A stretch of 32,000 bases of DNA from Vulcanimicrobiota bacterium (GTDB lineage: Bacteria > Vulcanimicrobiota > Vulcanimicrobiia > Vulcanimicrobiales > Vulcanimicrobiaceae). Below are positions 9,370 to 31,639 of the stretch, in pieces. Position 1 is the stretch's first letter. Every line of letters begins with the position of its first letter. The DNA lies in contig PLDA01000002.1 in the NCBI GenBank assembly GCA_003134965.1, positions 1,388,415 to 1,420,414 of the forward strand, written 5' to 3'. The notes under the pieces were generated by a model, which was given only the letters and a program-made list of their open reading frames with translations, ran no database searches and was not told the origin of the DNA. Both the position numbers and the translations under genes were made by a program.

Positions 9370-9961
9370 ATTGAAGCGTAGCGCGCACGTCACGCGGGAG
9401 ACGCGCGAGACGCGGGTCGAGCTGCGGCTCGCGCTCGACGGCGGCCCCGTCTCGATCGCGACCGGCGTCGATTTCTTCGACCACATGCTGGGCGCGCTCG
9501 CGACGCACGGCGGACTCGGTTTCGAGTTGACCGCACGCGGCGACGGGATGGATCACCACCACGTGATCGAGGACGTCGGGATCACGCTCGGGCGCGCGAT
9601 CGACGAATCGCTCGGCGACAAGCGCGGGATCGCGCGCTTCGGCTCGATCGCGATCCCGCTCGACGACGCGCTCGTGCAATGCGCGCTCGACCTCAGCGGA
9701 CGGCCGTACTTGAACTACGACGTCCCGCTCTCGGTCCCGGCGCTCGGCGCGCTGCCGACCGAACTCGTCCCGCACTTCTTCCGCAGCGTGGTCGACCACG
9801 GTAAGTTCAACCTGCACCTGCTGCGTTGGGCCGGCACGAACAACCACCATCTGTGCGAGGCGGCGTTCAAGGCCTTCGCTCGCGCGTTTGCGCAGGCGAA
9901 GGTGCTCACCGCATCGAGTGAGGTCCCGTCGACGAAAGGCTCGCTGACCGAAGGGGGCTGA
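9365..9961 (+). CDS. hisB: Imidazoleglycerol-phosphate dehydratase
   Basis: RETRETRVELRLALDGG, FFDHML, DHHHVIEDVGITLG, HHLCEAAFKAFARA. GTG start in a GTGA overlap with the citrate synthase stop. In-frame TTG 9371 is an alternative start. Confidence 0.9.
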   Translation: MTLKRSAHVTRETRETRVELRLALDGGPVSIATGVDFFDHMLGALATHGGLGFELTARGDGMDHHHVIEDVGITLGRAIDESLGDKRGIARFGSIAIPLDDALVQCALDLSGRPYLNYDVPLSVPALGALPTELVPHFFRSVVDHGKFNLHLLRWAGTNNHHLCEAAFKAFARAFAQAKVLTASSEVPSTKGSLTEGG

Positions 9962-9997
9962 GGGGCTTCGACGTGGCTAAGCCCCGGCTCGAGCCGG
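9962..9997. terminator. Two overlapping hairpins between convergent genes (possible bidirectional terminator)
   Basis: GGGGCTT (9962-9968) pairs with AAGCCCC (9979-9985). A perfect 14-nt palindrome CCGGCTCGAGCCGG lies at 9984-9997. There is no U-tract. Confidence 0.35.
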
Positions 9998-9999
9998 CG

Positions 10000-10140
10000 T
10001 CAGACGCTGAACATCACGGCGATCACCACGCAGACGACGGCGATGCCGATCCCGGCGACCGAGAAGTCGTGTTCCGGCGGTAGGCTTCGCTCGCGTCTGC
10101 GATCCTTGCGCGAGCGCCGACGCCCCGCCACGTTCGTCAC
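10000..10140 (-). CDS. Small (46 aa) Arg-rich, C-terminally membrane-anchored protein; absent from the ORF track
   Basis: GTG at 10140 is preceded by GGAGGG about 8 nt upstream. Translation: VTNVAGRRRSRKDRRRERSLPPEHDFSVAGIGIAVVCVVIAVMFSV*. Third codon positions are strongly G/C. Confidence 0.4.
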   Translation of the reverse strand: MTNVAGRRRSRKDRRRERSLPPEHDFSVAGIGIAVVCVVIAVMFSV

Positions 10141-10312
10141 CCCCACTGCCCTCCTAGCTCCGGGTCGGTTCCGTTACGAGGCTCTTTCCGTGATGAGCGA
10201 GGGGCCTAACGCTTTTTGCAACGGAGCGCTGCGTGAGGTTCGACCTGTCCTGTTTCGCCCGATCGGCGCGCTCGCCGGAGGGGCCGGGCGCCTGCGACCG
10301 GTAGAGCCGAGC

Positions 10313-11470
10313 ATGCCGGTTCGGCGACTGCTTGGTCCGCTTGCCTTGATCGTCCTCGTCGTCGCGGTCGGTTTCGCCATCGTGCTCTCGACGCGCGAGG
10401 CCGGCCGGCAGCGGGCGGCCCGCGCCGTCGTCGCGGTCCACGGCCTCGTCGGTTCCGAAAAAGAAGCGTACCTGCGCGACCCGCGCGTGCTCGACGAGCT
10501 GCGCAAGAACGGCTTCGATCTCCGCATCGAGACCGCCGGTTCGCGCGAGATGGCCAAGCGTACCGATCTCTCGACCTATGATTTCGCGTTCCCGGCCGGA
10601 GCGCCGGCCGGCCAGCGGCTGAAGGTGATCGTCAAGGCCAAGGACGTTTATACGCCGTTCTTCACGCCGATGGCCGTCGCGTCGTGGAAGACCATCGCGA
10701 ACATCATGATCGCGAACGGCATCGTGAAGATCGACGGCGGACACTACATGATCGTCGACATGCCGAAGCTGCTCGCGGCAGAGAACGAGGGAAAGCGCTG
10801 GCACGATTTCAAGGCCTCGAGCGGCTACGACGTCAACAAGTCGGTCCTGGTCACCACCACCGACCCGCGCAAGTCGAACTCCGGTGTGATGTACGCGGCG
10901 CTGGCGTCGTACGTCCTCAACGGAAACCAGGTCGTGCAGAGCGACGCGCAGGTCCAGCGCGTGCAGACCCAGATCAACGGTTTGTTCCTGCGCCAAGGTT
11001 TTCAGGAGTCGTCGTCGGCCGGCCCGTTCGAGGACTACGTCGAGATCGGGATGGGGAAGGCGCCGCTGGTCATGATCTACGAGTCGCAGTTCATCGAGTA
11101 CTTGCTCGCGCACGCCAACGACCGCGGCGGCCAAAAGGTGCTGCTCTATCCGCGTCCGACGATCTACACGAAGCACACCTTCGTACCGATCGACGAGGCG
11201 GGCGACCGTCTCGGGCAATTGCTGCAGACGGATCCGGTGCTGCAGCACTTGGCCGTGGAGCACGGCTTTCGCATCCAGGACTCGGCGTACTCGAGCGACT
11301 TCTGGAAGCGCAACGGGATCTCGGTCCCCGAACAGCTGATCGACGTCGTCGACCCGCCATCGTTCGAGTTCCTCGAAGATCTCATCACCGGCGTCGAGCG
11401 CGCCTACACCTCGAATCAGGAGGTTCCCCGAGATGGATCCAACGACAGCCGCCCCGGCCGCAACAGTTGA
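10313..11470 (+). CDS. Membrane-anchored periplasmic-binding-protein-like protein (first gene of the TelA operon)
   Basis: ATG at residue 91 of track ORF 10043..11470 gives MPVRRLLGPLALIVLVVAVGFAIVL, an N-terminal TM anchor. The upstream part of the ORF has poor GC3. Motif TTTDPRKSNSG parallels MTNPSTSNSG in the vWA protein downstream. Confidence 0.65.
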   Translation: MPVRRLLGPLALIVLVVAVGFAIVLSTREAGRQRAARAVVAVHGLVGSEKEAYLRDPRVLDELRKNGFDLRIETAGSREMAKRTDLSTYDFAFPAGAPAGQRLKVIVKAKDVYTPFFTPMAVASWKTIANIMIANGIVKIDGGHYMIVDMPKLLAAENEGKRWHDFKASSGYDVNKSVLVTTTDPRKSNSGVMYAALASYVLNGNQVVQSDAQVQRVQTQINGLFLRQGFQESSSAGPFEDYVEIGMGKAPLVMIYESQFIEYLLAHANDRGGQKVLLYPRPTIYTKHTFVPIDEAGDRLGQLLQTDPVLQHLAVEHGFRIQDSAYSSDFWKRNGISVPEQLIDVVDPPSFEFLEDLITGVERAYTSNQEVPRDGSNDSRPGRNS

Positions 11471-12608
11471 ACCGCTGACCCCACCCGCCCCGGTCGCTGC
11501 GGTGACGCCGCAGACCGCGCTCGCGATGGTGCAGCTCACGCCGGATCAAACGGCGAAGCTCGACGCCCAAGTCGACGGGTTCGCGAAGGATTTGCTCGGG
11601 CTGCCCGTCCACTCGGACGACTTCAAGAACCGCGTCAATGCGATCTCCGCGATGGGAAATGAGGAGATCGCGCATTCGGCCGGACTCGCGAACCGGCTGC
11701 TCGACCGGCCCGCGCGGGCGATGAACGGCGGAATCTTCGACAGCGGCTCCGACGTGGCCAAACAGCTCGTGTCGCTGCGCGATACCGTCGAACGGCTCGA
11801 TCCCGTCTCGCACGGCGATCTGTTCGCGCCGCGCAAGCTGCTCGGCTTCATCCCGTTCGGTTCCGCGATGCTCGACTATTTCCGGTCCTATGAGTCTTCG
11901 CAGACGCATCTCAACGCGATCATCAACGGTCTGTACGCCTCCCGCGATCAGCTGCTGCACGACAACGCCGACATCGAGCAAGAGCGCGAGAACCAATGGA
12001 CCCTGATGGGGCAGCTCGAACAGTTCGCCTACCTCGCGAAGAAGGTTGCCGACTCGTTGGACGGACAGATCGCGAGCGTCGCGGCGACCGACCCGGAGCG
12101 CGCCAAGATCCTCAAGGAAGACGTGCTGTTTTACGCGCGTCAGAAGCAGGTGGACATCGCGACCCAGCAGGCCGTCAACGTGCAGGGGTACCTCGCGCTC
12201 GACCTGATCCGGAAGAACAACGAAGAGCTGATCAAGGGCGTCGACCGCGCGACGACGACGACGGTCGCCGCGCTGCGCACCGCCGTGATCGTGGCCCAAG
12301 CGCTGACCAACCAGAAGCTGGTGCTCGATCAGATCGACGCGCTGAACGCGACGACGAACAAGGTGATCGCGGACACCGCGACCATGCTCAAGCAGAACAC
12401 CGAGCGCGTCTTCGAGCAGGCGTCGAGTTCGACGGTCAGCATCGACACGCTCAAGCAGGCTTTCGCCGACACGAAGGCCGCGATCGACGGCGTGAGCGAG
12501 TACAAGGAAAAGGCCCTGGTCTCGTTCCAGCAGACCGTGCAAGCCCTGCAGCCTGCGATCGACGACGCGCAAAAGTACATCGCGGCGCACCGCGACACCG
12601 GAGCGTAG
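11433..12608 (+). CDS. telA: TelA/KlaA-family toxic anion resistance protein
   Basis: 391 aa. AGGAGG lies 9 nt upstream of the ATG. The layout is TelA/YaaN-like: LTPDQTAKLDAQVDGFAKDLL..., LGFIPFGSAMLDYFRSYESSQTHLNAIINGL, then long helical segments. Overlaps the upstream gene by 38 nt. Confidence 0.8.
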   Translation: MDPTTAAPAATVEPLTPPAPVAAVTPQTALAMVQLTPDQTAKLDAQVDGFAKDLLGLPVHSDDFKNRVNAISAMGNEEIAHSAGLANRLLDRPARAMNGGIFDSGSDVAKQLVSLRDTVERLDPVSHGDLFAPRKLLGFIPFGSAMLDYFRSYESSQTHLNAIINGLYASRDQLLHDNADIEQERENQWTLMGQLEQFAYLAKKVADSLDGQIASVAATDPERAKILKEDVLFYARQKQVDIATQQAVNVQGYLALDLIRKNNEELIKGVDRATTTTVAALRTAVIVAQALTNQKLVLDQIDALNATTNKVIADTATMLKQNTERVFEQASSSTVSIDTLKQAFADTKAAIDGVSEYKEKALVSFQQTVQALQPAIDDAQKYIAAHRDTGA

Positions 12609-12613
12609 CGGCG

Positions 12614-14188
12614 GTGCGCCCGCGGATCCTCGCTCCTGCCCTGGCGGCGTTGCTGCTCGTCGCGGCGGCGGCGTGCGGCGGACCGTCGGCGCCGAAGGAG
12701 ACACTCGACGTCTTCGCGGGCTCCGAGCTGAAAGATGTCGAGCCGATCCTGGCCGATGCGGAGCGGGCGACGGGCGTGCACGTCGCGATGACGTACACCG
12801 GGACGATCTCCGGGATCGACCGGCTCGCCGGCGGCGAACGGCACGATGCCGCCTGGTTTGCGCAGGACAAATACCTCGCGCTCAGCAGCGCCGGCAAATC
12901 AGTGCGCACCCGCACGAGGATCATGCTCTCGCCGGTGATCCTCGGCGTCAAGCACTCGGTCGCCGAGCGGCTGGGCTGGAGCGGCGGAAAGCGCGTCTCG
13001 TGGCGCGACGTGCAGGGCGCGATCGCGGCGGGCCACTTTCGCTACGCGATGACGAACCCGAGCACGTCGAACTCGGGCTTCTCCGCGGTGCTGAGCATCT
13101 CGACCGCGCTCGCCGGCACCGGCGATGCGCTGCGGCCCTCCGAGGTGAACCGGGCTGCGATCGCGGCGTTCTACCGCGGCCAAAAGGTGGTCTCGGGCAG
13201 CAGCGGCTGGCTCAGCGACGCGTTCCTCGCCGCGCAGGATCGCGTCGACGGGATCATCACCTATGAAGCCAGCATCGCGGCGCTGGACGCGAACCCCGCG
13301 CTGCGCGAGAAGCTCGACCGCGTCTATCCGTCCGACGGTCTCGTCACCTCGGACTACCCGCTGGATCTGCTCGACGAGTCGAAGCACGACGCGTACGACC
13401 GGCTCGTCGCGTATCTCAAGAGTCCCGAGGTGCAGAAGCGCATCGCCGAGACGACGTACCGCCGGCCGATCGACCCCTCCGCCGCGACGCAGCAATATCC
13501 GGCGGTCCTGCAAGAGACGGCGTTCCCGGCCTCCGCCGCCGCGGTTCAGCAGCTGCTGCTGCGATTTCTCAACCAGGATCGCGTTCCGGCGCACTCGTTC
13601 TACGTGCTCGACAAGACCGGGTCGATGGACAATGAGGACGGCACGGGGAAGAGCCGCATTCAGCGCGTGCGCGAAGCGCTCGACGTCCTGGCCGGTGGGG
13701 ACGACTCCTTGACCGGACAGTTCGCGCGATTCGTCGACCGCGAGCGGATCACGATCATTACCTTCAGTCAGGCCCCCGAGATCGATCGAACGTTTCAGAT
13801 GACGCGGGCGAACGATCCGGGGGTGTTCGCGGCGGTGCGCGCGCTCGGCGCCTCCCTCGCCCCCGACGGCAACACGGCGATCTATACCGCGCTCGAAACG
13901 GCGCTGCAGGAAGCGGTGCGCGACGAGACCGACGATGCCGGTCGGTACGCGACGATCGTACTGATGACCGACGGTGAGAACAATCGCGGCGACGACTTCG
14001 CGCGTTTCCAGCGCAAGTGGAACGCGTTGTCGCAGTACGGGCGGCACATCCACATCTTCCCGATCTTCATCGGCGAGGCGAATCCCAAGGAGCTGCAGCA
14101 GATCGCCGACCTGACCGGCGGACGCGCGTTCGACGCGCGTTCGCAGTCGCTGGCCGAGATATTCAAGGAGATCCGGGGCTACCAGTGA
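12614..14188 (+). CDS. Lipoprotein with an N-terminal PBP-like domain fused to a C-terminal von Willebrand factor A domain
   Basis: GTG start 5 nt after the telA stop, inside track ORF 11996..14188. Signal peptide and lipobox VRPRILAPALAALLLVAAAAC. MIDAS-like elements FYVLDKTGSMD, NTAIYTAL, LMTDGENN. Confidence 0.8.
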   Translation: MRPRILAPALAALLLVAAAACGGPSAPKETLDVFAGSELKDVEPILADAERATGVHVAMTYTGTISGIDRLAGGERHDAAWFAQDKYLALSSAGKSVRTRTRIMLSPVILGVKHSVAERLGWSGGKRVSWRDVQGAIAAGHFRYAMTNPSTSNSGFSAVLSISTALAGTGDALRPSEVNRAAIAAFYRGQKVVSGSSGWLSDAFLAAQDRVDGIITYEASIAALDANPALREKLDRVYPSDGLVTSDYPLDLLDESKHDAYDRLVAYLKSPEVQKRIAETTYRRPIDPSAATQQYPAVLQETAFPASAAAVQQLLLRFLNQDRVPAHSFYVLDKTGSMDNEDGTGKSRIQRVREALDVLAGGDDSLTGQFARFVDRERITIITFSQAPEIDRTFQMTRANDPGVFAAVRALGASLAPDGNTAIYTALETALQEAVRDETDDAGRYATIVLMTDGENNRGDDFARFQRKWNALSQYGRHIHIFPIFIGEANPKELQQIADLTGGRAFDARSQSLAEIFKEIRGYQ

Positions 14189-14796
14189 GGCTCCCCCTCT
14201 ACGTCTACAGCAATCGGAACATCGCGGGGAGCGCTCTGGGCCTGCTCGCGCTCGGCGCGTACTTCGCCGGCGCGATCCACGAGCTGTGGTACGTGATCGT
14301 CGTCGGGAGCTACGGGATCGGCGCGCTGCTCGGGCGCGACGGCGGCGAGCTCGAGACGCACTTGAACGACGAGATGAGCGTGCAGGATGCCGTCGACGGC
14401 GTCGGCCGGCTCGCCGCCGAAGCCCAGAAGCGCTTCCCGCCCGAGATCGCCGCGCTGGTCGCCGAGATCGCGACCGACGTCGCGACGGTTCTTCCGCGGC
14501 TCGCCGCGCACGGCGTCGCCGACGCTACCTTCGCCGACGTGCGCTCGACTGCGATGAGCTATCTGCCGGATACCCTCAACGCGTTCCTCGCCGTGCCGGC
14601 GGCCTACCGGAATACCGCACCGATCGCCGACGGCAAGACAGCGCGCCAGATCGTCGTCGCGCAGCTCACCGTGCTCGCGGCGAAGATGAAGGAGATCGCC
14701 GAGAACGTGACCGCCGACGACGCGCAAGCGCTGCTCGCGAACGGGCGTTTTCTCAAGGAGCGTTTCGCGGCGGCCCCGATGTTCAAACCGGCATGA
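14185..14796 (+). CDS. XpaC-like (5-bromo-4-chloroindolyl phosphate hydrolysis protein family) two-TM protein
   Basis: GTG in a GTGA overlap with the vWA gene stop. 203 aa with two N-terminal TM helices (NIAGSALGLLALGAYFAG, WYVIVVGSYGIGALLG) followed by a helical domain. Size and topology match B. subtilis XpaC, whose gene sits next to its TelA homolog yaaN. This is a family-level call by eye. Confidence 0.5.
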   Translation: MRLPLYVYSNRNIAGSALGLLALGAYFAGAIHELWYVIVVGSYGIGALLGRDGGELETHLNDEMSVQDAVDGVGRLAAEAQKRFPPEIAALVAEIATDVATVLPRLAAHGVADATFADVRSTAMSYLPDTLNAFLAVPAAYRNTAPIADGKTARQIVVAQLTVLAAKMKEIAENVTADDAQALLANGRFLKERFAAAPMFKPA

Positions 14797-15116
14797 CGGA
14801 GCCCGCGATCATCACGTTCGCCGGCGATCTCGAGCTGGCGCGTTATCCGGCGGCGCACGGCATCCTCGAGGCCGCAAAGCTCTCGAAGGGGCGCTCCCTC
14901 GTGCTCGACCTCTCGGCCGCCGATCGCGTCGACCCACTGATCGCCGGTGAGCTCGTCCTGTTTATCCGCCGTTCGCTGCGTTACGGCGCCCTGGTGGCGG
15001 TCGTCCCGCCGCACCGCCCCAACGAATGGCTGACCCATGCCGGCTCGATTCGCGACGCGCATTTCCGCCAAACGCGCGAAGAGGCGCTCGCGCTGGTCGG
15101 CGGCGCGGCTCCGTAG
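14793..15116 (+). CDS. STAS-domain protein (anti-sigma-factor-antagonist-like)
   Basis: ATG in an ATGA overlap with the upstream stop. 107 aa. FAGDLELARYP...LVLDLSAADRVDPLIAGELVLF aligns by eye with the SpoIIAA/RsbV core. Confidence 0.6.
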   Translation: MTEPAIITFAGDLELARYPAAHGILEAAKLSKGRSLVLDLSAADRVDPLIAGELVLFIRRSLRYGALVAVVPPHRPNEWLTHAGSIRDAHFRQTREEALALVGGAAP

Positions 15117-15119
15117 GCG

Positions 15120-15911
15120 TCAGGCGGCGGCGCGGTAGTAACGCCGCGCGCGCCCGATGATCTCGTCCGCGTACGCCGGCAGGTAGGCGCGCAGCCAAAG
15201 GATCATCGCTTCGGCGTTCGGGAGCGCCGGCCACGCCGGGCGCCCGTGGCGATCGCTGAGCTCACGCACGCCGTCCGCGCGCGGTCCCAACACCTCGTCC
15301 ATCGCACGGTCGACCGCGCGCTGCAGCGCGGCGTCTCCGGCCGGCAGGAGGTGGGTGTGGTTCGCCAGCAGCGCGTCGACGTCGTCGGGCCGAAACCCCT
15401 CGCCGAAGACGTCGATCGGGTAGGCGCAGAACAGCTTGAAGCCGCCTTCCGCGAGCAGGGCGTTCCAGAGCTCCTCGAGACGGATCGCGGCGGCGTAGCG
15501 CTCGGCCGACCAAAGGACGCCGACCATCTCGCCGTAGGCGCGAATCCCCCGGCTTCCCGTGCGCGCGCCAAGGTCGCGCATCAGCGAACCGACGACCTCG
15601 GTGAACCGCTGCGGATTGGGCTGTCCGTCGACCATCAGGCGGTCGAGTGTCTCGTGCGCGTCGAGCAGCACGAGCTGCCCGTCGCAGAGCGCCGCCTCGG
15701 GGGCGAAACCGGCCTTGGCAACCGCCGCGGGGACACCCGCCCGATGACCCTCCGTTGCGATGACGAGCGCGACCTCGCCGCGCACCAAGCCTTCGGCGAG
15801 GTAGCGTCCGATGTTGGCGAGCAGGACGGCATCGTCGGTGGCGTCATGCAGCTGCACGAAGTGCGATTGCGGGCGCGCTTCTCCGAGCAGCTCCCGCGTG
15901 ACATCGGACAT
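15120..15911 (-). CDS. MEDS-domain protein
   Basis: MEDS hallmarks: HFVQLHD near the N-terminus, RAYGEMVGVLW, LEELWNALL, LFCAYPIDVF. The stop lies 3 nt from the stop of the convergent STAS gene. Confidence 0.75.
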   Translation of the reverse strand: MSDVTRELLGEARPQSHFVQLHDATDDAVLLANIGRYLAEGLVRGEVALVIATEGHRAGVPAAVAKAGFAPEAALCDGQLVLLDAHETLDRLMVDGQPNPQRFTEVVGSLMRDLGARTGSRGIRAYGEMVGVLWSAERYAAAIRLEELWNALLAEGGFKLFCAYPIDVFGEGFRPDDVDALLANHTHLLPAGDAALQRAVDRAMDEVLGPRADGVRELSDRHGRPAWPALPNAEAMILWLRAYLPAYADEIIGRARRYYRAAA

Positions 15912-15993
15912 ATCGTGAACGCCTATACCCAGCCCGGGAGAGCCTTCCTACCTGACAGCGGCTCGTTCGACGGCGCCGGCGGACGCCGCGCGC

Positions 15994-18057
15994 TCATAGC
16001 ACCGCGTCCCGGCTGAGGCTCGCGGCGCCGCGGTAGTGCGTCTGCCCGCGCAGGACGGCGCGCGCATGGCTGCCGCCGCCGCGGCGCCGCTCGACCGTCA
16101 GCTCTTCGGCGAACGCCGTGACGAGGAACAGACCGCGGCCCCGCTCGGAGAGGAGGTCGGCCGGCAGCCGCGGCCGGAACTCGAAACCGCGGCCGTCGTC
16201 GACGACGTGCAGCACGGCGGCTTCGCCCGAGACGTCGAGGATCACCTCGATCGGTCCGGGTGCGTATCGCACGACGTTTCCGAGCAGCTCGCCGAAGACG
16301 AGCTCGGCGCTGAACACGTCCGCTTCGCCGAGCCCCGCTGCGTGCAGCTGCACGATGCAGTCGCGGCGCGCACGCTGCGCCGCGTCGGAATCGGTGACCC
16401 CGAAGCGCCACCGTGAGGCGCGGCGTGGACCGTCGATCGTGGTGAGCGGCCGGTCGAACGAGACGGCGAGGATCGCGACGTCGTCGTGCGGCGGAAGGCC
16501 GCCCGAGACGCCGGCGTAGATCGCGTGCGCGATCTCCTGGTCGGTCGTGGCGAGCGCGGCGGCGACGACCGACTCGCCGAGCAGCGCGTCGCGATCGAAC
16601 TCGGTGAGCCCGTCGGTGTAGCACAGCAGGACCGAGCCCGGCTCGATGTCGACCGTCGTCCCCGCGCCGTCGGCGTGCCCGCGGATTCCGAGCGGCAGAT
16701 CCGGCGCGAAGAGCGGACGCACCGTGCGGTCCGGGCCGCGCAGCAGCGGCGGCGGGTGTCCCGCCGACGCGAACGTGAGCTCGAAGCAGACGGGATCGAG
16801 CACGCCGACGAACGCGGTGACGAACGGCGCACGGCCCATCGCGCGAACGATGCGGTCGACCGCGTTCAGTACCGCGACCGGCTCGGGGTTGATGAGCGCG
16901 GCGGTGCGGATGCTCTGCCGCACGCTCGCCATCGCGACCGCCGCGTCGAGCCCCTTGCCTGCGACGTCACCGACCGAGAGCACCAGGCGCCCGTCGGGGA
17001 GCCGGAACGCATCGTACCAGTCACCGCCGACGGTCGCCTCCAGCATCGCGGCTTGATAGATCGCGTCGAACGCGATTCCCGGGATGTCGGGGAGCGACGC
17101 GCTCAGCGCCGCCTCCTGAAACGTCGTCGCGACGCGCCGTTCGCGCTCGTACGCCGTTGCGTTGCCGATCGCCGGCGCGATGCGGCGCCCGAGCTCCTCG
17201 AAGAACGGCACGTCGGCGCGCGTATATGCGCGGCCGCTGCTGCGCAGGACGGCGTTCAGCGTCCCGACGATCCGTCCGCCGGAGATGAGCGGTACGATCA
17301 GCGCCGAGTCGTACCCGATCCGTGCGAACGCCTCTCCGAACGGCGCTTCGATGCTTTCACGACCGAACTCTTCGGTCAGCGCCTCGTAGACGACGGGCCT
17401 CCCGGTGCGCAGCACCTCCGCCGTCCCGCTGCGCGCAGCCAAGTTCGCATACGGCTGCCCCCGCAGCTCGTCGAGCGCGGCGCGCAGCGCTTCATCGCGG
17501 TGGTACGCGGCCGAGAGACGAACCTCGCCGCGATCGTCGATGAGGTTCACGGTCGCCCAGTCGGCGAACTCAGGTACGATGCGCCGCGTGATGACGCGCA
17601 GCGTCTGATCGAGAGAGAGCGCGCCCGCGAGCTCGGCACCGAGCTGCGAGAAGAACCGTTCGCGAAGGCGCGCGCCGCGCGCACCGTCGATGTCGGTATT
17701 CGTTCCGAACCAGCGCACGACGCGGCCGTCGTCGTTGCGCAACGGCGTCGCGCGGGTGAGGAACCAGCGGAAGCGCCGGTCCGCGCCGCGCAGCCGGAAC
17801 TCCATCTCGAACGGTTCGCCGGTCGCGATCGAGCGCGCCCACGCGCGCATGACCTCGGGCAGATCCTCGGCGTGGTGAACCGCTTGCCACCCCCAGCCTT
17901 CCGCTTCGTCCCGCGTCTGCCCGGTGTAGTCGTACCAGCGCGCGTTGTACCAATCGATCCAGCCGTCGGCCAGCGCCGACCACATCATCTGGGGCACGGC
18001 GTCCGCGATGACGCGGAACGACGCCGCCTCGGTCCAGGCGAAGGGCTGGACGTCCAT
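15994..18057 (-). CDS. Multidomain PAS-GAF-PP2C(SpoIIE)-HATPase (RsbW-like) signalling protein
   Basis: PAS: WIDWYNARWYDYTG...RWFGTNTDI. PP2C/SpoIIE: GGDWYDAF, VGDVAGKGLDAAV, YTDGLTE. HATPase: ELLGNVVRYA, VVDDGRGF. ATG 18057 is preferred over the track's TTG 18060. Confidence 0.85.
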   Translation of the reverse strand: MDVQPFAWTEAASFRVIADAVPQMMWSALADGWIDWYNARWYDYTGQTRDEAEGWGWQAVHHAEDLPEVMRAWARSIATGEPFEMEFRLRGADRRFRWFLTRATPLRNDDGRVVRWFGTNTDIDGARGARLRERFFSQLGAELAGALSLDQTLRVITRRIVPEFADWATVNLIDDRGEVRLSAAYHRDEALRAALDELRGQPYANLAARSGTAEVLRTGRPVVYEALTEEFGRESIEAPFGEAFARIGYDSALIVPLISGGRIVGTLNAVLRSSGRAYTRADVPFFEELGRRIAPAIGNATAYERERRVATTFQEAALSASLPDIPGIAFDAIYQAAMLEATVGGDWYDAFRLPDGRLVLSVGDVAGKGLDAAVAMASVRQSIRTAALINPEPVAVLNAVDRIVRAMGRAPFVTAFVGVLDPVCFELTFASAGHPPPLLRGPDRTVRPLFAPDLPLGIRGHADGAGTTVDIEPGSVLLCYTDGLTEFDRDALLGESVVAAALATTDQEIAHAIYAGVSGGLPPHDDVAILAVSFDRPLTTIDGPRRASRWRFGVTDSDAAQRARRDCIVQLHAAGLGEADVFSAELVFGELLGNVVRYAPGPIEVILDVSGEAAVLHVVDDGRGFEFRPRLPADLLSERGRGLFLVTAFAEELTVERRRGGGSHARAVLRGQTHYRGAASLSRDAVL

Positions 18058-18067
18058 CAACCGCGCA

Positions 18068-19222
18068 TTAGAGCCGCACCGGCCTCACACGGTAGACGGC
18101 ACCGTTCGCGTCGTCACTCACGAAGAGCGAACCGTCGTTTCCGACCGCCACGCCGCTGGGCCGGCACGCGCGCGCACCGTCGGCGCTTTGACAGCCGCCG
18201 CCGAACTCGGTCCACTGCGCATCGGGATTCGACCAGTCGACGGCCTTCGCGGGTTCGCCGTTCCTGAACGGGACGAAGGCGACGCGCGGCGGGACCGGCG
18301 GCTGGTGCCACGAGCCGTGCAAGGTGACGAACGCTCCGCCGCGATACCTCGCCGGAAACGCGTGCGCGCCTTTGAGGTCGAGCGGATAGAACGCCGCGCC
18401 GATCGGCGTGTCGTACGCCGGGAACACGACTTTCGGCACGACGACGTTCGCGCAGCTCGCGCCCCCGATCGGTTTGCGGTCGTCGTAGCACTTCATCCAG
18501 CCGTAGTCCGGCGTGCCGGCGTGGGACGTGACGTCGTCGAAGATCTCGTACGGGTGGCCGTGCTCCAGATCGTCGCGCCCCGCGACGCCGGCCCAGAGCG
18601 CGCCGGTCTCCGGTTTCACCGCGAGCGCGATGGCGTTGCGAATGTCGACTGCGCGCGCGCGCACGTTCTTGCCGTCCGGCGTCATCGCTTGAATCGTCGC
18701 GCGCGTCGGATCGCTTTCGTCGCACGCGTTGCACGACGAGCCGACGCTCGCGTACAGCGTTCCGTTGGAGAGCGCGATCGTCGTCGTCGAGTGGCCGCGG
18801 CCGCCGCCGGTGCGGACGCTCGCGATCTTTTGAGGACCGCTGCGCGCTTCGCGGTCGCCGGTCCGGTATGCGATCTTGTACACTCCGCCCTGGCCGCCCG
18901 CGAATACCGCGTCGCCCGCCACCAGCACGCCCGCGACCGGGCGGTCGTCGACCGACGCGAACCGGCGCGGTTCGCCGGGATTGCCCTCGGCGTCCGGAAC
19001 GACGTAGATCGCGTTCCCCGACGTGCCGACGAACAGATCGCCGTTCGGCGCAACGGAGAGTTCGCGCGCCCAGGTGATGGTCGCGATGCGCTCGGCGACG
19101 AAGCCGGTTGGAACGGTGAGGGCGACCGCCCCGGCCGCCTGGCCGGTGAGCGGTGCGGCAGCCGGGGCCGCGGCGACGAGGACGCACGCCGCAGCGAAGG
19201 CTAGGAAACGGTGCGAGACCAT
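18068..19222 (-). CDS. Secreted sorbosone/glucose dehydrogenase-like beta-propeller protein (paralog 1)
   Basis: ATG start. Signal peptide MVSHRFLAFAAACVLVAAAPAAA. Motifs GSSCNAC, DYGW, HGSWH, SLFVSDD..GAVYRV are typical of the GSDH/sorbosone dehydrogenase family. Confidence 0.7.
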   Translation of the reverse strand: MVSHRFLAFAAACVLVAAAPAAAPLTGQAAGAVALTVPTGFVAERIATITWARELSVAPNGDLFVGTSGNAIYVVPDAEGNPGEPRRFASVDDRPVAGVLVAGDAVFAGGQGGVYKIAYRTGDREARSGPQKIASVRTGGGRGHSTTTIALSNGTLYASVGSSCNACDESDPTRATIQAMTPDGKNVRARAVDIRNAIALAVKPETGALWAGVAGRDDLEHGHPYEIFDDVTSHAGTPDYGWMKCYDDRKPIGGASCANVVVPKVVFPAYDTPIGAAFYPLDLKGAHAFPARYRGGAFVTLHGSWHQPPVPPRVAFVPFRNGEPAKAVDWSNPDAQWTEFGGGCQSADGARACRPSGVAVGNDGSLFVSDDANGAVYRVRPVRL

Positions 19223-19253
19223 CTCAGCCCTGGTTCCCCCGCGCGCGCGTTCT

Positions 19254-20528
19254 CTACCGGCGGTCAGCCCCCGAGGTGGCCGTCCCGGCCGGCCGGATCC
19301 GGTAGACCGCGCCGGCCGTATCGTCGGCGACGAACAGGCTCCCTTGCGCGCCGACCGTTACCCCGGTCGTCCGTCCGATGCGGGCCGTCCCGTTCTGGAA
19401 TCCGGTGAAGAAGTCGTTCCACTGCGCGGTCGGATCGCTCCAGTTGACCGCGCGCGCCGGTGCGCCGCCGGCGAACGGCACGAACGCGACGTGCGGCGCA
19501 TCGACCGGGTTCCCGTTCGCGGCCGTGTGCCACGACCCGTGCAGGCTCACGAACAGACCGCCGCTCCAGGCGGACGAAAACGCGTACGGGCCGGGTTGCG
19601 CGGCGGGGTAGAACGCGGCGCCGATGATCGTCGAGTAGGCCGGAAACGCCACCGCCGGGACGACGACGTTCGCGCAGTTCGCGCCGCTCGTGTACGCGAC
19701 GCGGTTCTCCTCACAGTCCGGCCAGCCGTAGTCGGCCGGCGCGCCGTGCGCCGAGACGGGGTCCATGAACTCGTACGGATGGCCTGGCGCCAGACTGTCC
19801 TGACCGGCGCCGCCGGCCCAGACGGTGCCGGTCGACGGATCGGTCGCGAGCGCGATCGCGTTGCGCCAGCGCTTCGCCTGCGTCGTCATCCCGAGCCCGT
19901 CGATCCCCATCCGCTGCACGGTCGCGCGGGTCGGATCGGTCTCGACGCATGCGTTGCACGACGAGCCGACACCGACGTACAGCGTCGAGCCGCTGACCGC
20001 TGCCGAGCTCGTGGTGTGGGTGTCGCCGTCGGTACCCGCGATCGAACCCGTCCGCACCGACGCGATCGGCGTCACCGTCCCGCTGTGCGCGCCAGCGGCA
20101 TACGCTATCTTGTAGACGCCGAGCTTCGTCGTCACGAAGACGAAGCCGGCGCCGTAGGCGACACCCTGCGCCGGCCCCTCCGGCAGCGTCGCAAACGTCA
20201 ACGGAGCGTCGGCGGCGCCGGGGCTTTCGGCGTTCGGGACGATGACCACCGTCTGGCCGAGCGTCCCGACGATCAGGTCGCCATTGGGCAGCGCCGCCAG
20301 CTCTCGCGCGCCGCCGACCTGCGCGATGACGCTCACGATGAAGCCCGAAGGGACGTGCAGGCTCGCGTTCGCCGACGGCGCGCTCGGTCCGGTGAAGGGC
20401 GTGGGGCTCGGCGTGGGGCTCGGCGTCGCAGTCGGCAGCGGCGCCGCGGCCGGCTGCACGCCGCTCCCGCCGCCGCTGCACGCGGTCAGCGCGCAGGCAA
20501 GCAACGCCGCCCCGGCGAGCGAACGCAG
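19254..20528 (-). CDS. Sorbosone/glucose dehydrogenase-like lipoprotein (paralog 2); start codon uncertain
   Basis: Roughly 50% identical by eye to paralog 1, with the same GSSCNAC, DYGW, HGSWH and SLFVADD..GAVYRI motifs. A Pro/Thr linker follows the lipobox LTAC. Only a CTG at 20528 gives a sensible signal peptide (M)RSLAGAALLACALTAC. The track's TTG 20795 would overlap hisH antisense by 261 nt. Confidence 0.65.
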   Translation of the reverse strand: MRSLAGAALLACALTACSGGGSGVQPAAAPLPTATPSPTPSPTPFTGPSAPSANASLHVPSGFIVSVIAQVGGARELAALPNGDLIVGTLGQTVVIVPNAESPGAADAPLTFATLPEGPAQGVAYGAGFVFVTTKLGVYKIAYAAGAHSGTVTPIASVRTGSIAGTDGDTHTTSSAAVSGSTLYVGVGSSCNACVETDPTRATVQRMGIDGLGMTTQAKRWRNAIALATDPSTGTVWAGGAGQDSLAPGHPYEFMDPVSAHGAPADYGWPDCEENRVAYTSGANCANVVVPAVAFPAYSTIIGAAFYPAAQPGPYAFSSAWSGGLFVSLHGSWHTAANGNPVDAPHVAFVPFAGGAPARAVNWSDPTAQWNDFFTGFQNGTARIGRTTGVTVGAQGSLFVADDTAGAVYRIRPAGTATSGADRR

Positions 20529-20534
20529 AAGCCG

Positions 20535-21149
20535 ATGACGGTTCCGAAGATCGCGGTAATCGACTACGGCGGCGGCAACGTCGGCTCGCTGATCGCCGCG
20601 CTCGAGCGGCGCGGGGCCGCGTTTACGCTGACCGAAGACCCGCGCGACGTCGACCGGGCGCAGGCGGCGATTCTGCCCGGCGACGGAGCGTTCGGGGCGA
20701 CGATCGACGCCATTCGCGAGCGGAAACTCGATGGTGCGATCGACCGGGCGATCGCCGCGGGGCGACCCTTTCTCGGGATCTGCGTCGGTATGCAAGTGTT
20801 GTTCGACTCCAGCGACGAGTACGGCGGCGCCCTCGGCCTCGGTATCTTACCCGGCGAGGTACGCCGCTTCACCGGCGCTCCCCGCGTCCCGCACATGGGC
20901 TGGAACGATCTCGTGATCGAGCGCACGCACCCGTTCGTCGACGGCATCGCGAGCGGAGCGTGGGCATACTTTCTCCACTCGTACCGCGTCACCGGAGCCG
21001 ACTCGGTCGTCGCGTCGTGCGAGTACGGCGAGCGCTTTGCCGCGATCGTCGCCCGCGACAACGTGATGGCCACGCAGTTCCACCCGGAGAAGAGCCGCTC
21101 CACCGGAGCCCGTCTGCTCGACAACTTCCTCCGCATCGCCGCCGCGTGA
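20535..21149 (+). CDS. hisH: Imidazole glycerol phosphate synthase, glutamine amidotransferase subunit
   Basis: MTVPKIAVIDYGGGNVGS, catalytic FLGICVGMQVL, FLHSYR, ATQFHPEKS. ATG at residue 505 of track ORF 19023..21149. Confidence 0.9.
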   Translation: MTVPKIAVIDYGGGNVGSLIAALERRGAAFTLTEDPRDVDRAQAAILPGDGAFGATIDAIRERKLDGAIDRAIAAGRPFLGICVGMQVLFDSSDEYGGALGLGILPGEVRRFTGAPRVPHMGWNDLVIERTHPFVDGIASGAWAYFLHSYRVTGADSVVASCEYGERFAAIVARDNVMATQFHPEKSRSTGARLLDNFLRIAAA

Positions 21150-21874
21150 GAACGCTGACGCTTTATCCGGCGATCGATCTGCGCGGCGGACACGCCGTGC
21201 GTCTCGAGCGCGGCGACCCGTCGCGTGAGACGCGCTATGACGCCGATCCCGTTGCGCGCGCGCGCGCGTTCGTCGCCGACGGCGCGCAAGCGCTGCACGT
21301 CGTCGATCTCGACGGAGCGTTCGGCACCGGCGAAAATCAGCGCGCGCTGCGGGAGATCTGCGCGGCGGTCGACGTTCCGGTCCAAACCGGCGGCGGGATC
21401 CGCAGTGCGGACGACGTCGCCGCGCGCTTCGCCGCCGGCGCGAGCGCGGTCGTGATCGGCACGCTGCTGGTCGAACATCCGAACGACGCGCGCGTGATCG
21501 CCGACCGCTGGGGCGACCGTATCGTCGCCGGGATCGACGCGCGCGGGGAACGCGTCGCGACGCGCGGCTGGCTCGCCGAAACCGCGATCTCTCGCGACGA
21601 CCTCGTCCGCACGGTCGCATCGTGGGGCGTGCACCGCGTCGTCTACACCGAGATCGCGCGCGACGGCATGGGGGCCGGCTACGACGTGGCAGCGCTGGCC
21701 CACGTCGCGTCGCTCGCGCCGCTCCACATCACCGCCAGCGGCGGCGCACGAACGCTGGACGACCTGCTCGCGCTGCGCGACGGCACGCCGCCGAACGTCG
21801 ACGCGGCGATCGTCGGACGCGCGCTCTACGAGCAGACCCTGCACCTCCCCGACGCGCTGGCCGCGCTGCGATGA
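21146..21874 (+). CDS. hisA: 1-(5-phosphoribosyl)-5-[(5-phosphoribosylamino)methylideneamino]imidazole-4-carboxamide isomerase
   Basis: GTG in a GTGA overlap with the hisH stop. LYPAIDLRGG, VVDLDGAFG, QTGGGIRS, ASGGARTLDDL, IVGRALYE. Confidence 0.9.
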   Translation: MRTLTLYPAIDLRGGHAVRLERGDPSRETRYDADPVARARAFVADGAQALHVVDLDGAFGTGENQRALREICAAVDVPVQTGGGIRSADDVAARFAAGASAVVIGTLLVEHPNDARVIADRWGDRIVAGIDARGERVATRGWLAETAISRDDLVRTVASWGVHRVVYTEIARDGMGAGYDVAALAHVASLAPLHITASGGARTLDDLLALRDGTPPNVDAAIVGRALYEQTLHLPDALAALR

Positions 21875-22224
21875 CGAGCAAACAAGTCATCGTCGTGCGC
21901 AACGACTTGAACATGCGCAAAGGTAAGATGATCGCGCAGGGTGCGCACGCCTCGCTCGCCGCGTTCATGGAAGCCGATCCCGACGACCCCGCACTGCTCG
22001 ACTGGCTCGACGGCGCCGGCGCGAAGATCGCGGTCTCCGTGCCGAGCGAAGAGGCGCTGCTCGACGTCTACGAACGGGCTCGCGCCGCCGGCCTTCCGTG
22101 CGCGCTGATCACCGACGCCGGCCGAACCGAGTTCGGCGGCGTCCCGACGCGCACCGCCGTCGCGGTCGGCCCCGCCTGGTCCGACGCAGTCGACGCGATC
22201 ACGGGAGAACTGAAGCTGCTCTAA
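21871..22224 (+). CDS. pth2: Pth2-family (archaeal/eukaryotic-type) peptidyl-tRNA hydrolase
   Basis: ATG in an ATGA overlap with the hisA stop. VVRNDLNMRKGKMIAQGAHAS and ITDAGRTEFGGVPTRTAVAVGP match PTH2 hallmarks. 117 aa. Confidence 0.75.
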   Translation: MTSKQVIVVRNDLNMRKGKMIAQGAHASLAAFMEADPDDPALLDWLDGAGAKIAVSVPSEEALLDVYERARAAGLPCALITDAGRTEFGGVPTRTAVAVGPAWSDAVDAITGELKLL

Positions 22225-25759: not shown

Positions 25760-26452
25760 ATGGCCGGCGGGCCGTCGATTCCGGCCGGATGGAACGTCCT
25801 CGTCCGGCATTACGAAGAGTGCATGGCGCAGCACGGCGCCACGCCGCGCGGCGTTGATTGGCCGAACGGTGACGACCTTGCGGCGCGTTTCGGCGTGATG
25901 CTCGAGGTCCTGGCCGAGACCGGCGAACGGCCGAGACTGCTCGATCTCGGTTGCGGGCCCGGCCTCCTCCTCGACTACCTCGCCGCGACGAGCGGTGTCG
26001 ATCGGATCCGCTATCAGGGCATCGACCTGTCGAGCGCGATGGTGGACGCGGCCCGTGAGCGCTGGCCCGAGCACGAGTTCTCATGCCGGGACATTCTCTC
26101 AGCCCCGCTTCCGGAGCAGAGCGTGGACGTCGTCATCATGAACGGTGTGCTGACCGAACGGGTTTCGCTGAGCGTTCCGTCGATGACGGCTCTGGCGCAA
26201 GCCCTCGTCGCGGCGGCGTTCAGCGTCGCGCGCGTGGGCATCGCGTTCAACGTGATGAGCGCGCACGTGGACCGGGAGCGTGACGATCTTTTTCACTGGC
26301 CGTTCGACGCGCTGGCCGGGTTCCTCGAGCGCGAGGTGAGTCACAACTACACGTTCCGGGCCGACTACGGGCTCTACGAGTACACCTGCTTCGTCCGGCG
26401 TCAGCCGCACCGGCCTTCGGCGGGACCGCCGGAAACCTGGTGGAAGCGATGA
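25760..26452 (+). CDS. Class I SAM-dependent methyltransferase
   Basis: Motif I LLDLGCGPGLL and post-I GIDLS, within track ORF 25211..26452. ATG 25760 is preferred. ATG 25703 is possible but would overlap the divergent gene. Confidence 0.75.
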   Translation: MAGGPSIPAGWNVLVRHYEECMAQHGATPRGVDWPNGDDLAARFGVMLEVLAETGERPRLLDLGCGPGLLLDYLAATSGVDRIRYQGIDLSSAMVDAARERWPEHEFSCRDILSAPLPEQSVDVVIMNGVLTERVSLSVPSMTALAQALVAAAFSVARVGIAFNVMSAHVDRERDDLFHWPFDALAGFLEREVSHNYTFRADYGLYEYTCFVRRQPHRPSAGPPETWWKR

Positions 26453-26459
26453 AGGTTTC

Positions 26460-27398
26460 TCACGTTCGCCGATCGAGGATGGCGCACCCGAACCCCTCCG
26501 CCCCAAAGCCGTTGCCGTTGTAGAACATCATCAGTTTTCCGTCGACGTCCAGGACGGCGGGGTACGCCTGCATCAGACCGTCCCAGCATCCGGGAGCGCC
26601 CACTTGGATGCCCGCATTCTCATCGTCGCGCCGCCAAACGATCCCGTCCTCGGACTCGGCGTAACCGATTCGGTACGCGCCCGCTCCGTCGCGAAAATCC
26701 TCGCTGCTGCGGAAGCAGAACCACATGCTGTAGCCCGCCTCCGACTTGACCACGGTCGCGCGCGTGTTCGCTTCGTGAGCGGTAGCCGGGTGTATGCACG
26801 TAACGTTGTTGCGCGTCCAACGGATTCCGTCGTCCGACTCGCCGTACTTGATGACGTAGAGCGGCTCGAGCACATCGGTTCCGACGTCGAGCCAGTCGGT
26901 TCCCGACGAGTACCACATCCGAAACCTCGCGCCTTCGCCGAGAATCCACGCGCCAACGGCAAAATAGGGTTCCTGCGCGGTCCGGTCGATGATCGGTCCT
27001 TCAAAGGCCCTCCGAAACGGCGCTGCGCCGCCGTCGCTCACCGCGAGTCCGATCGCGTTGCCCCAAGGAACGACGACACGCCGGTTATAGCCGTGGTAGT
27101 AGAGAAAAATCTTCCCCTCGCGCGCCATGGCGAAGTTGGTGAGCGTCCCGCTGTCATCGAACGAACCGGGTCGTCCGATCTCCAAGATCGGTTCATCGGG
27201 CACGTGGACGACACGCGTGGGATCCTTCCGGTCCAGGTCGACGAAACTCATGCGACTGATGTTGGACTGTTCGCGCGTCGTGAAATAGACCCGGATCACG
27301 TCTTCCATGAGCAATGGAGTAGGAAGCATGGCGTGACTTCTCATCCACCCTTTGCCGTGTGTTCGAACCGAGAAGACGAGCCCGAGTTTTTCCCACAT
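26460..27398 (-). CDS. Five-bladed beta-propeller protein (GH43/32/130-like fold) of the kind found in glycan-biosynthesis loci
   Basis: 312 aa. Blade-like repeats: GSFDDSG..FLYYHG, GLAVSDGG.PF.R, YVIKYGESDDGIRWTR, IGYAESEDGIVWRR, MMFYNGNGFG. Lower GC, with A/T-ending codons. Confidence 0.55.
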   Translation of the reverse strand: MWEKLGLVFSVRTHGKGWMRSHAMLPTPLLMEDVIRVYFTTREQSNISRMSFVDLDRKDPTRVVHVPDEPILEIGRPGSFDDSGTLTNFAMAREGKIFLYYHGYNRRVVVPWGNAIGLAVSDGGAAPFRRAFEGPIIDRTAQEPYFAVGAWILGEGARFRMWYSSGTDWLDVGTDVLEPLYVIKYGESDDGIRWTRNNVTCIHPATAHEANTRATVVKSEAGYSMWFCFRSSEDFRDGAGAYRIGYAESEDGIVWRRDDENAGIQVGAPGCWDGLMQAYPAVLDVDGKLMMFYNGNGFGAEGFGCAILDRRT

Positions 27399-27411
27399 TC
27401 CGATCGGGACG

Positions 27412-28011
27412 CTATCGAGTGCTTTTCTGCATGAACCGGCTCGAGGCCAGGAGCTCTTGGCCTTTCCCGATCGCGTCGCGGCGCCGCTCTTTGATCGGTC
27501 TCGCCGGTACTCCGCCGTAGATCGTCCACGGTTCGGTCGACCGTCCGATCAAACTCAGCGCGCCGAGCACCGAGCCCTCCGCCAGCGTCACCCCGGGCAG
27601 GATGATCGCGCCGGCGCCCGTGATCGTGTGCTCTTCCATCACCACTGCTCCGTGACTGAGGCAAAGCAGATCGGGCGGGATCGTCGGTCCCATCAAATGT
27701 TCACCCGAGTAGTCGTCGTTGATCGTGTAGATGCGCGCGCCATGCGCGATGTTCGCAAAGTTCTTCATCTCGAAGCCGGCTTTGGCGGCGATGAAGACAC
27801 CCGCCGCAATGTGCGTGTAGCATCCGACGGTCAACGGCCCGGTCGCGAGAAGGATGACATCCGGATCGATCCGCACGTGGGATCCAATCGAGATGTTTTC
27901 AATGCCGACGAGCGTTACACGTTCGTGGATCATCACGTCATGTCCCAGTGATTTGAAGGGCATGCCGGCGAGCACCTCGGGAGTAAGATAGTCAGCGCGA
28001 TAGTTCGTCAT
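27412..28011 (-). CDS. Left-handed beta-helix (hexapeptide-repeat) acyl/acetyltransferase
   Basis: Repeated [LIV]-G-x4 hexapeptides: ISIGSHVRIDPDVIL, ITGAGAIILPGVTLAEGSVLGALSL, then GGVPARPI. ATGA overlap with the upstream gene. Confidence 0.8.
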   Translation of the reverse strand: MTNYRADYLTPEVLAGMPFKSLGHDVMIHERVTLVGIENISIGSHVRIDPDVILLATGPLTVGCYTHIAAGVFIAAKAGFEMKNFANIAHGARIYTINDDYSGEHLMGPTIPPDLLCLSHGAVVMEEHTITGAGAIILPGVTLAEGSVLGALSLIGRSTEPWTIYGGVPARPIKERRRDAIGKGQELLASSRFMQKSTR

Positions 28012-31632: not shown

Positions 31633-31639
31633 TGGGCTG

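Follow-up and report, generated by a model that had tools for sequence, protein, structure and literature searches.

Do the five tightly packed genes around a telA gene in a Vulcanimicrobiota genome form a single system and, if so, where does that system end and what might it do? The genes, here called g1 to g5, occupy positions 10313-15116 of a 32,000-nucleotide stretch of contig PLDA01000002.1 (the window; Table 1). They encode an anchored binding-fold protein, TelA, a lipoprotein that joins a substrate-binding protein (SBP) domain to a von Willebrand factor A (vWA) domain, a small helical-hairpin protein and a STAS-like protein. A preliminary description, made from the DNA letters alone, had read them as one envelope-stress sensor with a partner-switching output. 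Here, we show that the first four genes are a conserved cassette of their own, a variant of the predicted TelA membrane complex that contains two families without any domain model (those of g1 and g4) and that has come to lie, by insertion, next to a STAS gene unrelated to it. Members of the TelA family influence how resistant cells are to tellurite, nisin, bacitracin and daptomycin (PMC12791056; PMC6811118), and a 2026 paper still gives their mechanism as unknown (PMC12791056).

The gene structure itself was described correctly. An open reading frame (ORF) check and independent gene calls on a 100% identical metagenome contig returned the same five same-strand genes, with identical products (385, 391, 524, 203 and 107 aa) and exactly the same four junctions; the nearest matches are labelled Candidatus Eremiobacterota or Elarobacter. 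Beyond this genome, what is conserved is a unit of four. We surveyed one genome per species using a 13-sequence alignment of g4 as the seed, which yielded 35 loci and one more by contig look-up, and in all 36 tblastn found g1-g2-g3-g4 in the same order and on the same strand. Sampling seeded with g1 gave three further loci (one of them in Gemmatimonadales), each with the identical four genes, so that the order is kept in every one of the 39 sampled loci, which come from many phyla. STAS is absent from 36 of these 39 and present only in the closest Eremiobacterota relatives (loci L002-L004 of our numbering). Thus, the idea of a TelA-centred, translationally coupled envelope module is borne out, and it is strongly conserved as a unit; that unit consists of g1 to g4, and g5 falls outside it. 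Distances between genes of the cassette are mostly -4 to about +30 nt. The 38-nt overlap of g1 and g2 is specific to this genome, g1 ending 10 to 154 nt before telA in the other 36 cassettes, and a scan for promoters and terminators found none above shuffled expectation.

The carriers of the cassette are diverse. Labels of the metagenome-assembled genomes (MAGs) include Eremiobacterota, Alpha-, Beta- and Gammaproteobacteria, Solirubrobacterales, Bacteroidota and Gemmatimonadales, and the cassette is also found in cultured bacteria such as Delftia acidovorans, D. tsuruhatensis, Tahibacter soli, Derxia lacustris, Plasticicumulans acidivorans and Sphaerotilus sulfidivorans, the last of which has it on a 303-kb plasmid. 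What lies around the cassette does not recur: in a Pfam scan of the 134 nearest flanking ORFs, each family was found in at most two loci. An ABC permease or ATPase is found neither within the cassette nor recurrently among these 134 ORFs, and the called genes next to the cassette in L001, L044 and L046 include none; L045 does have oligopeptide-type permease genes, but they are unrelated and are encoded on the other strand, about 3-5 kb upstream. Transporters, enzymes and DNA-binding proteins are likewise lacking from the cassette. Because the order is fixed in 39 loci, the flanks are unrelated and the families are large (see below), we conclude that the four genes are a self-contained, mobile and widespread cassette. 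In full-text searches of the literature, we did not find a g1-TelA-SBP/vWA-g4 cassette described. A phosphate-scavenging function, which the PhoX and ExeM/NucH neighbours in Sphaerotilus had brought to mind, was rejected, as PhoX accounts for just 1 of the 65 upstream ORFs.

What are the components of the cassette? By its Pfam match, g2 is unambiguously TelA: the match to PF05816 (E 2.8e-78, 263.8 bits against a cut-off of 30) covers profile positions 5-331 of 332. Together with the lack of any transmembrane (TM) or hydrophobic segment in g2, this full-length match upholds the cytoplasmic TelA of the preliminary description. Its start is supported by an AGGAGG Shine-Dalgarno sequence ending 8 nt 5' of the ATG. 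We found no solved structural homologue of TelA. In two Moraxellaceae loci (L017, 5337-6299; L019, 5441-6412), the TelA slot is filled by a shorter protein of about 320 aa that is 27% identical to g2, while g1, g3 and g4 are conserved as in other loci (35-48% identity); the slot may hold a displaced or a fast-evolving TelA.

The lipoprotein g3 had been described as a periplasmic-binding-protein (PBP)-like domain fused to a vWA domain with a metal-ion-dependent adhesion site (MIDAS), and this description stands. It matches SBP_bac_11 (E 8.6e-17, 62.1 bits against a cut-off of 25), VWA_2 (E 1e-11, 45.8 bits) and VWA (E 2.3e-10, 41.4 bits), and its family profile matched vWA proteins and, weakly, ModA in the PDB. 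It has a signal peptide and a lipobox cysteine, Cys21, that is nearly invariant among 26 orthologues, which supports an extracytoplasmic vWA domain as the predicted topology of an exported lipoprotein. The MIDAS residues D333, S337, T421 and D453 are invariant in the 26 orthologues, and 24 of them have Ser or Thr at position 335 (Ala in L012, Asp in L018); the window protein reads D-K-T-G-S. The alignment thus confirms that the vWA domain carries a full MIDAS site, for which metal binding is predicted.

More difficult to classify is g1, for which neither Pfam nor NCBIfam gave a match, even at E up to 10; a family profile of 26 sequences likewise found no match among PDB sequences. There are at least 2539 homologues, every one annotated as hypothetical. 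The AlphaFold2 (AF2) model of g1 has a mean predicted local distance difference test score (pLDDT) of 87.8 and a predicted template-modelling score of 0.81. Foldseek returned 251 PDB matches to it at E up to 1e-3, led by the sulfate-binding SubI, the ferric-binding FbpA and the molybdate-binding ModA (E 1e-8 to 1e-6, probability 1.00). Hence the model confirms the predicted type II periplasmic-binding (PBP-II) fold, which is established here by structure and not by a hidden Markov model (HMM), and the TM-anchored PBP-like protein of the preliminary description is borne out in its fold. A C-terminal tail of 15-20 residues is modelled with low confidence (pLDDT below 50 at residues 370-385). The n-region has a conserved M-x-x-R-[KR] followed by a hydrophobic segment, and the sequence suggests a signal anchor with a predicted N-in/C-out orientation.

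The binding domains of g1 and g3 had also been called paralogous. BLASTP between the two proteins is not significant; profile-profile alignment of the two families by hhalign covers 244 columns (E 1.8e-4, probability 48%), with the GSE, SNSG and Ser-rich loops in register. Given the fold of the g1 model and this alignment, the claim appears right in fold and plausible in ancestry, whereas paralogy as such is only modestly supported.

The fourth component, g4, has neither a Pfam nor an NCBIfam model, although its family is large (1957 representatives of 50%-identity clusters). Its AF2 model (pLDDT 79.6) has an N-terminal helical hairpin followed by a helical bundle, for which Foldseek found only generic helical-bundle noise in the PDB (E about 1 or worse). 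The N-terminus is basic, which places the C-terminal domain, by prediction, in the cytoplasm, and this domain carries the conserved motifs YLP...LP...G(K/R)T...QL...DAQALLANGRFL. A search of the PDB with the family profile matched the fusion-peptide/helix A region of influenza HA2 (E about 6e-5); we judged this match to be probably compositional (the hairpin is helical, hydrophobic and Gly-rich and has a conserved Trp) and rejected it as homology. The match does hint that the hairpin may be interfacial rather than a classical TM pair. In one alphaproteobacterial MAG (L006, 7980-9230), ORF extension gives a g4 homologue of 416 aa in place of about 205; its extra part has no Pfam match, and a fusion, a duplication or a missed stop or frameshift could account for the length.

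Is g4 an XpaC protein, as had been proposed? Its hairpin and helical-domain architecture and its linkage to TelA agree with that proposal, while the family assignment does not hold. The XpaC model PF10112 gave no match in the g4 of the window (E up to 10) or in any of 25 diverse members of its family (E up to 1), and the same tool detected it at 1e-61 to 1e-68 in the eight XpaC products tested. Our XpaC set comes from a metagenome scan that yielded 17 loci, in 13 of which telA lies directly 3' of xpaC, in line with the adjacency of TelA and XpaC on which the preliminary description drew. When the g4 family was compared with the XpaC alignment by hhalign, the membrane hairpin alone aligned (41 columns, probability 14.7%). 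We therefore rejected g4 as a member of the XpaC family; judged by these comparisons, its likeness to XpaC is at most one of architecture and function, with no detectable family membership. A Bacillus "plasmid" TelA, tried as another route to XpaC, proved to be a separate paralogue of TelA that adjoins a methyltransferase and a DUF3974 gene. In sum, HMM searches of the five proteins uphold TelA, SBP and VWA, do not uphold XpaC and give no family for g1, with g5 scoring below the cut-offs for STAS.

The g4 family nonetheless has a tie to TelA that does not depend on the rest of the cassette. Three long members (P0262, P0270 and P0342) have a PspC domain followed by two tandem copies of the g4 cytoplasmic domain; the g4 of the window has no PspC match. 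At L052, 4743-7398, the gene for P0342 is divergent beside a TelA that is 50.5% identical to g2, and neither g1 nor g3 is nearby. Because this PspC-g4 fusion adjoins TelA without g1 and g3, the cytoplasmic domain of g4 is a TelA-associated module that is carried on varied membrane anchors, including the phage-shock anchor PspC. From these fusions and from the xpaC-telA precedent we infer that the g4 domain and TelA may act as a membrane adaptor and its soluble effector, in the manner of PspC-PspA or LiaI-LiaH.

In light of these components, what might the cassette do? On balance, we think it probable that g1 to g4 constitute an extracytoplasmic binding module that is coupled through g4 to TelA, and that the whole is a membrane-stress device. 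The two PBP-II domains and the MIDAS site would lie outside the cytoplasmic membrane. The ligand that the PBP-II domains would bind there is a small one. That it would most plausibly be an oxyanion or a metal-anion species is a guess based on their Ser-rich loops at helix N-termini and on their nearest folds, which are sulfate, molybdate and ferric binders; the vWA domain would contribute a protein contact that depends on a metal. By way of the g1 anchor and the g4 hairpin, ligand occupancy, or a perturbation of the envelope, would be signalled to the cytoplasmic domain of g4, which would recruit TelA to the inner face of the membrane or release it, as PspC and LiaI recruit PspA and LiaH. TelA would then give the protection that has been seen genetically for its homologues (tellurite and cell-envelope antibiotics), an output without a transcriptional or transport component. 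In this genome, co-transcription with g5 may add a local regulatory link, which would not be a property of the cassette.

A stronger version, which we offer as a tentative possibility only, is that the cytoplasmic domain of g4 is an unnamed TelA-partner adaptor, carried either on its own Gly-rich hairpin or on PspC. Together with the equally unnamed family of g1, the cassette would then be a new envelope sensor-effector that works independently of transcription, extracytoplasmic binding of an oxyanion or metal directly controlling TelA at the membrane. If this adaptor and sensor-effector reading is true, TelA, unexplained for three decades, would gain an input and a partner, both of them testable.

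Several observations weigh against reading g1 to g4 as a self-contained sensor. The fold neighbours from which the ligand class was guessed have TM-scores no better than 0.4-0.6. All topology is predicted, and in the window's own clade the charge balance around the g1 anchor is ambiguous (+2 on the N-flank, +3 on the C-flank). The RefSeq labels in Sphaerotilus read hypothetical, toxic anion resistance, vWA domain-containing and hypothetical. Finally, the adjacency of g4 and g5 is kept in all four cassette-bearing Elarobacter-type genomes, with a 25-nt gap in L002-L004, and these three relatives carry an RsbW-like HATPase_c_2 gene directly upstream of g1.

The kept adjacency of g4 and g5 and the RsbW-like gene favour the original proposal, in which all five genes are one envelope-stress sensor that carries a signal from the exported PBP/vWA pair, by way of TelA and an XpaC-like protein, to STAS and partner switching, as do the ATGA overlap of g4 and g5 on the same strand and the PP2C-HATPase and MEDS genes that adjoin g5 in the window. 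We regard this explanation as unlikely. Apart from the 36 of 39 loci without STAS and the exclusion of g4 from the XpaC family, the evidence that decides against it comes from g5 itself and from its location.

The STAS assignment of g5 is weak but credible at the family level. The window protein scores 13.3 and 12.1 bits on Pfam STAS_2 and STAS (E 0.1-0.17), below the cut-offs. Its orthologue in L003 reaches 22.3 bits on STAS, and several homologues carry precomputed PF01740/PF13466 matches and are annotated as anti-anti-sigma factors. All five PDB matches of the g5 profile are STAS proteins, albeit weak ones (E 0.27-0.86). The family is limited to close relatives, its 48 homologue clusters all being at least 62% identical. 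SpoIIAA, RsbV and RsbS are phosphorylated at a canonical Ser. In g5 this position, aligned to RsbS and TM1442, is Pro48, and across 27 homologues the column holds P, A, S, T, Q or G, so that phosphorylation at the canonical site cannot regulate most members of the family. Despite this, the neighbours of the g5 family include RsbW-like kinases and PP2C phosphatases.

Where did g5 come from? Within positions 9371-21900 of the window, hisB is separated from hisH and hisA by an island of about 10.5 kb that holds a 48-aa ORF, the TelA cassette, the STAS gene, a MEDS gene, a PAS-GAF-PP2C-HATPase gene and two TrAA12-family genes, and relatives hold different subsets of these at the same his position (Table 1). 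For comparison, three of the more divergent members of the g5 family were looked up (L047, L048 and L049), and all three have the g5 orthologue at this locus without the cassette, which identifies g5 as a resident gene and not as part of the cassette. The other island genes are likewise found where the cassette is not. In L048 the g5 orthologue is accompanied by the MEDS gene and by an orthologue of the PAS-GAF-PP2C-HATPase protein that is 76% identical; this protein is likely the functional context of the STAS gene. The 48-aa ORF next to hisB has copies that are 57-78% identical in L002-L004 and L047-L049, with or without a cassette, and it marks the upstream edge of the cassette insertion. 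The simplest history is that the cassette was inserted into a resident partner-switching island that splits the his genes, which brought g4 beside g5. Since STAS is resident and absent from 36 of 39 loci, a STAS output is not a property of the module, and the wiring to partner switching that had been proposed is best accounted for by this insertion. The cassette may have a lineage-specific link to partner switching through co-transcription of g4 and g5.

Could the self-contained cassette serve another purpose than the proposed membrane-stress sensing? Somewhat less probable again than the five-gene sensor is a role in defence against phages or colicins, as a Ter/TelA-type module. The ter and kilA-telAB loci confer resistance to phages and colicins (PMC12054061), and the patchy cross-phylum distribution of the cassette, its unrelated flanks and its plasmid carriage in Sphaerotilus would suit such a role; however, seven proteins including all five products gave no match in PADLOC-DB 2.0, no nuclease, NTPase or other effector is present and the flanks contain no recurrent defence genes. 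Least probable of all, and very unlikely in our estimate, is that the two PBP-type proteins are the binding components of an uptake system (ABC, TRAP or TTT) to which TelA and g4 are accessory: the SBP_bac_11 match of g3, the resemblance of the g1 fold to ABC-transporter binding proteins and a Vibrio plasmid TelA cluster with an SBP and an ABC permease downstream speak for it, but across 39 loci a permease or ATPase is neither in the cassette nor recurrent in the flanks, and an SBP fused to vWA and a TM-anchored SBP suit a sensor or scaffold, not a shuttle.

For the study of TelA, the cassette provides a defined set of candidate partners: two exported ligand-binding domains, an exported MIDAS domain and a membrane adaptor. 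Compact and rigidly conserved, it is carried by bacteria that can be cultivated (among them Delftia acidovorans, Sphaerotilus sulfidivorans, Tahibacter soli and Derxia lacustris), which makes questions of ligand and interaction testable. Describing the g1 and g4 families (at least 2500 homologues and about 1950 clusters at 50% identity, respectively), both of which lack a model, would improve annotation. In addition, the g4-PspC fusion beside TelA links TelA to the world of Psp membrane stress. Once the STAS link is seen as an accident of where the cassette went in, partner switching drops out of the picture, and the locus is less surprising for it.

Table 1. The TelA cassette, its domains and the surrounding his-locus island. 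Positions are those of the window unless residues are given; in gene orders, (-) marks the minus strand and brackets enclose the cassette.
Feature	Position	Strand	Remarks
hisB	9371-9961		window coordinates
48-aa ORF	10000-10146	-	between hisB and g1; called as a gene; Arg-rich N-terminus, C-terminal hydrophobic segment
g1	10313-11470	+	385 aa; 38-nt overlap with g2
g1, TM segment	about residues 6-24 (nt 10328-10384)	+	predicted signal anchor
g1, PBP domain	about residues 38-367	+	predicted type II periplasmic-binding fold
g2	11433-12608	+	391 aa; 5-nt gap to g3
g2, TelA domain	residues 65-384 of 391	+	Pfam match
g3	12614-14188	+	524 aa; GTGA overlap with g4
g3, lipobox	Cys21	+	orthologue alignment
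g3, SBP_bac_11 domain	residues 32-280	+	Pfam match
g3, vWA domain	residues 331-517	+	Pfam match and orthologue alignment
g3, MIDAS	D333-x-T335-x-S337...T421...D453	+	in the vWA domain
g4	14185-14796	+	203 aa; ATGA overlap with g5
g4, Gly-rich helical hairpin	residues 10-49 (nt 14212-14331)	+	family alignment, AF2 model
g4, helical domain	about residues 66-194	+	predicted cytoplasmic; family alignment, AF2 model
g5	14793-15116	+	107 aa; last of the five same-strand ORFs
MEDS-domain (RsbA-like) protein	15120-15911	-	PF14417, E 5.7e-21; weak match to NF041045; convergent with g5, 3 nt apart
PAS-GAF-PP2C(SpoIIE)-HATPase_c_2 protein	15994-18060	-	OsaC-like kinase/phosphatase; Pfam matches
hisH and hisA	about 20535-21874		coordinates taken from L043
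Gene order, window			citS-hisB-48aa(-)-[g1-g4]-g5-MEDS(-)-PP2C/HATPase(-)-TrAA12 x2(-)-hisH-hisA; cassette present
Gene order, L002-L004			...48aa(-)-RsbW-like-[g1-g4]-g5-TrAA12...; cassette present
Gene order, L048			citS-hisB-48aa(-)-RsbW-like-NMO-STAS(-)-g5 orthologue-MEDS(-)-PAS-GAF-PP2C-HATPase(-)-TrAA12 x2-hisH-hisA; cassette absent
Gene order, L047 and L049			g5 orthologue between 48-aa ORF and TrAA12; cassette absent

Elsewhere in the window, G+C falls from about 0.71-0.72 to 0.60-0.64 over positions 26000-32000, where the ORFs include those of a group 1 glycosyltransferase, a metallo-beta-lactamase-fold protein and several proteins without a Pfam match; this may be a compositionally distinct segment.

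How does the locus compare with known systems? Its surroundings resemble RsbV/RsbW/RsbU partner switching, in that g5 is STAS-like and lies beside MEDS and PAS-GAF-PP2C-HATPase_c_2 genes, with a stand-alone RsbW-like gene in relatives. Unlike that system, the island is independent of the TelA cassette and g5 is without the canonical phosphorylatable Ser. The TerY and TerY-P vWA systems of ter clusters share with the cassette a vWA domain with an intact MIDAS site in a tellurite-resistance-family context. The vWA domain of the cassette differs in that it is part of a lipoprotein, in which it is fused to an SBP and with which it is predicted to be exported, and the PP2C protein nearby belongs to the resident island. 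The PADLOC models, among which a TerY-P model is expected, gave no match to the seven proteins scanned, and Pfam scans of the same seven found no TerD, TerB or TerC, the rest of the window not having been scanned for them.

Closer to the cassette is the xpaC-telA (yaaN) operon of Bacillus, Listeria and Enterococcus, which likewise pairs TelA with a protein of about 200 aa that has a two-helix hairpin and a helical C-terminal domain, and this pair is tied genetically to resistance to tellurite and envelope-active antimicrobials (PMC12791056; PMC6811118). As for differences, the gene order is opposite (TelA precedes g4 in the cassette), its TelA proteins are only about 21-24% identical to that of the cassette and the Firmicute operon lacks PBP and vWA genes. 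The Psp and Lia systems (PspC-PspA and LiaI-LiaH) offer the same combination of a small membrane anchor and a soluble, all-helical effector, and some members of the g4 family bear PspC in place of the hairpin and adjoin TelA. In contrast to PspA, TelA is not a member of the PspA/ESCRT-III family by any test that we ran, and its recruitment to the membrane is proposed here by analogy.

The closest relative in concept is a prediction. In 2012, Anantharaman, Iyer and Aravind (Mol Biosyst 8:3142) reportedly predicted TelA/TerB membrane-associated sensory complexes in which TelA is joined by PBP-II domains and, at some loci, by vWA and OmpA domains as well. Our cassette shares with this prediction the combination of TelA with PBP-II domains. 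It is set apart by its fixed four genes, the SBP-vWA fusion, a TM-anchored PBP from a family without a model, the g4 domain and the lack of OmpA. The 2012 work is cited in a more recent paper (PMC12054061). An example of such a complex, a locus on the Vibrio rotiferianus plasmid pAM7 (L042, 1-6154), encodes an OmpA-family protein, a vWA protein, a phosphate ABC transporter substrate-binding/OmpA (PstS-like) protein, a hypothetical protein, TelA, an SBP and an ABC permease, and thus contains the ingredients of the cassette in another arrangement.

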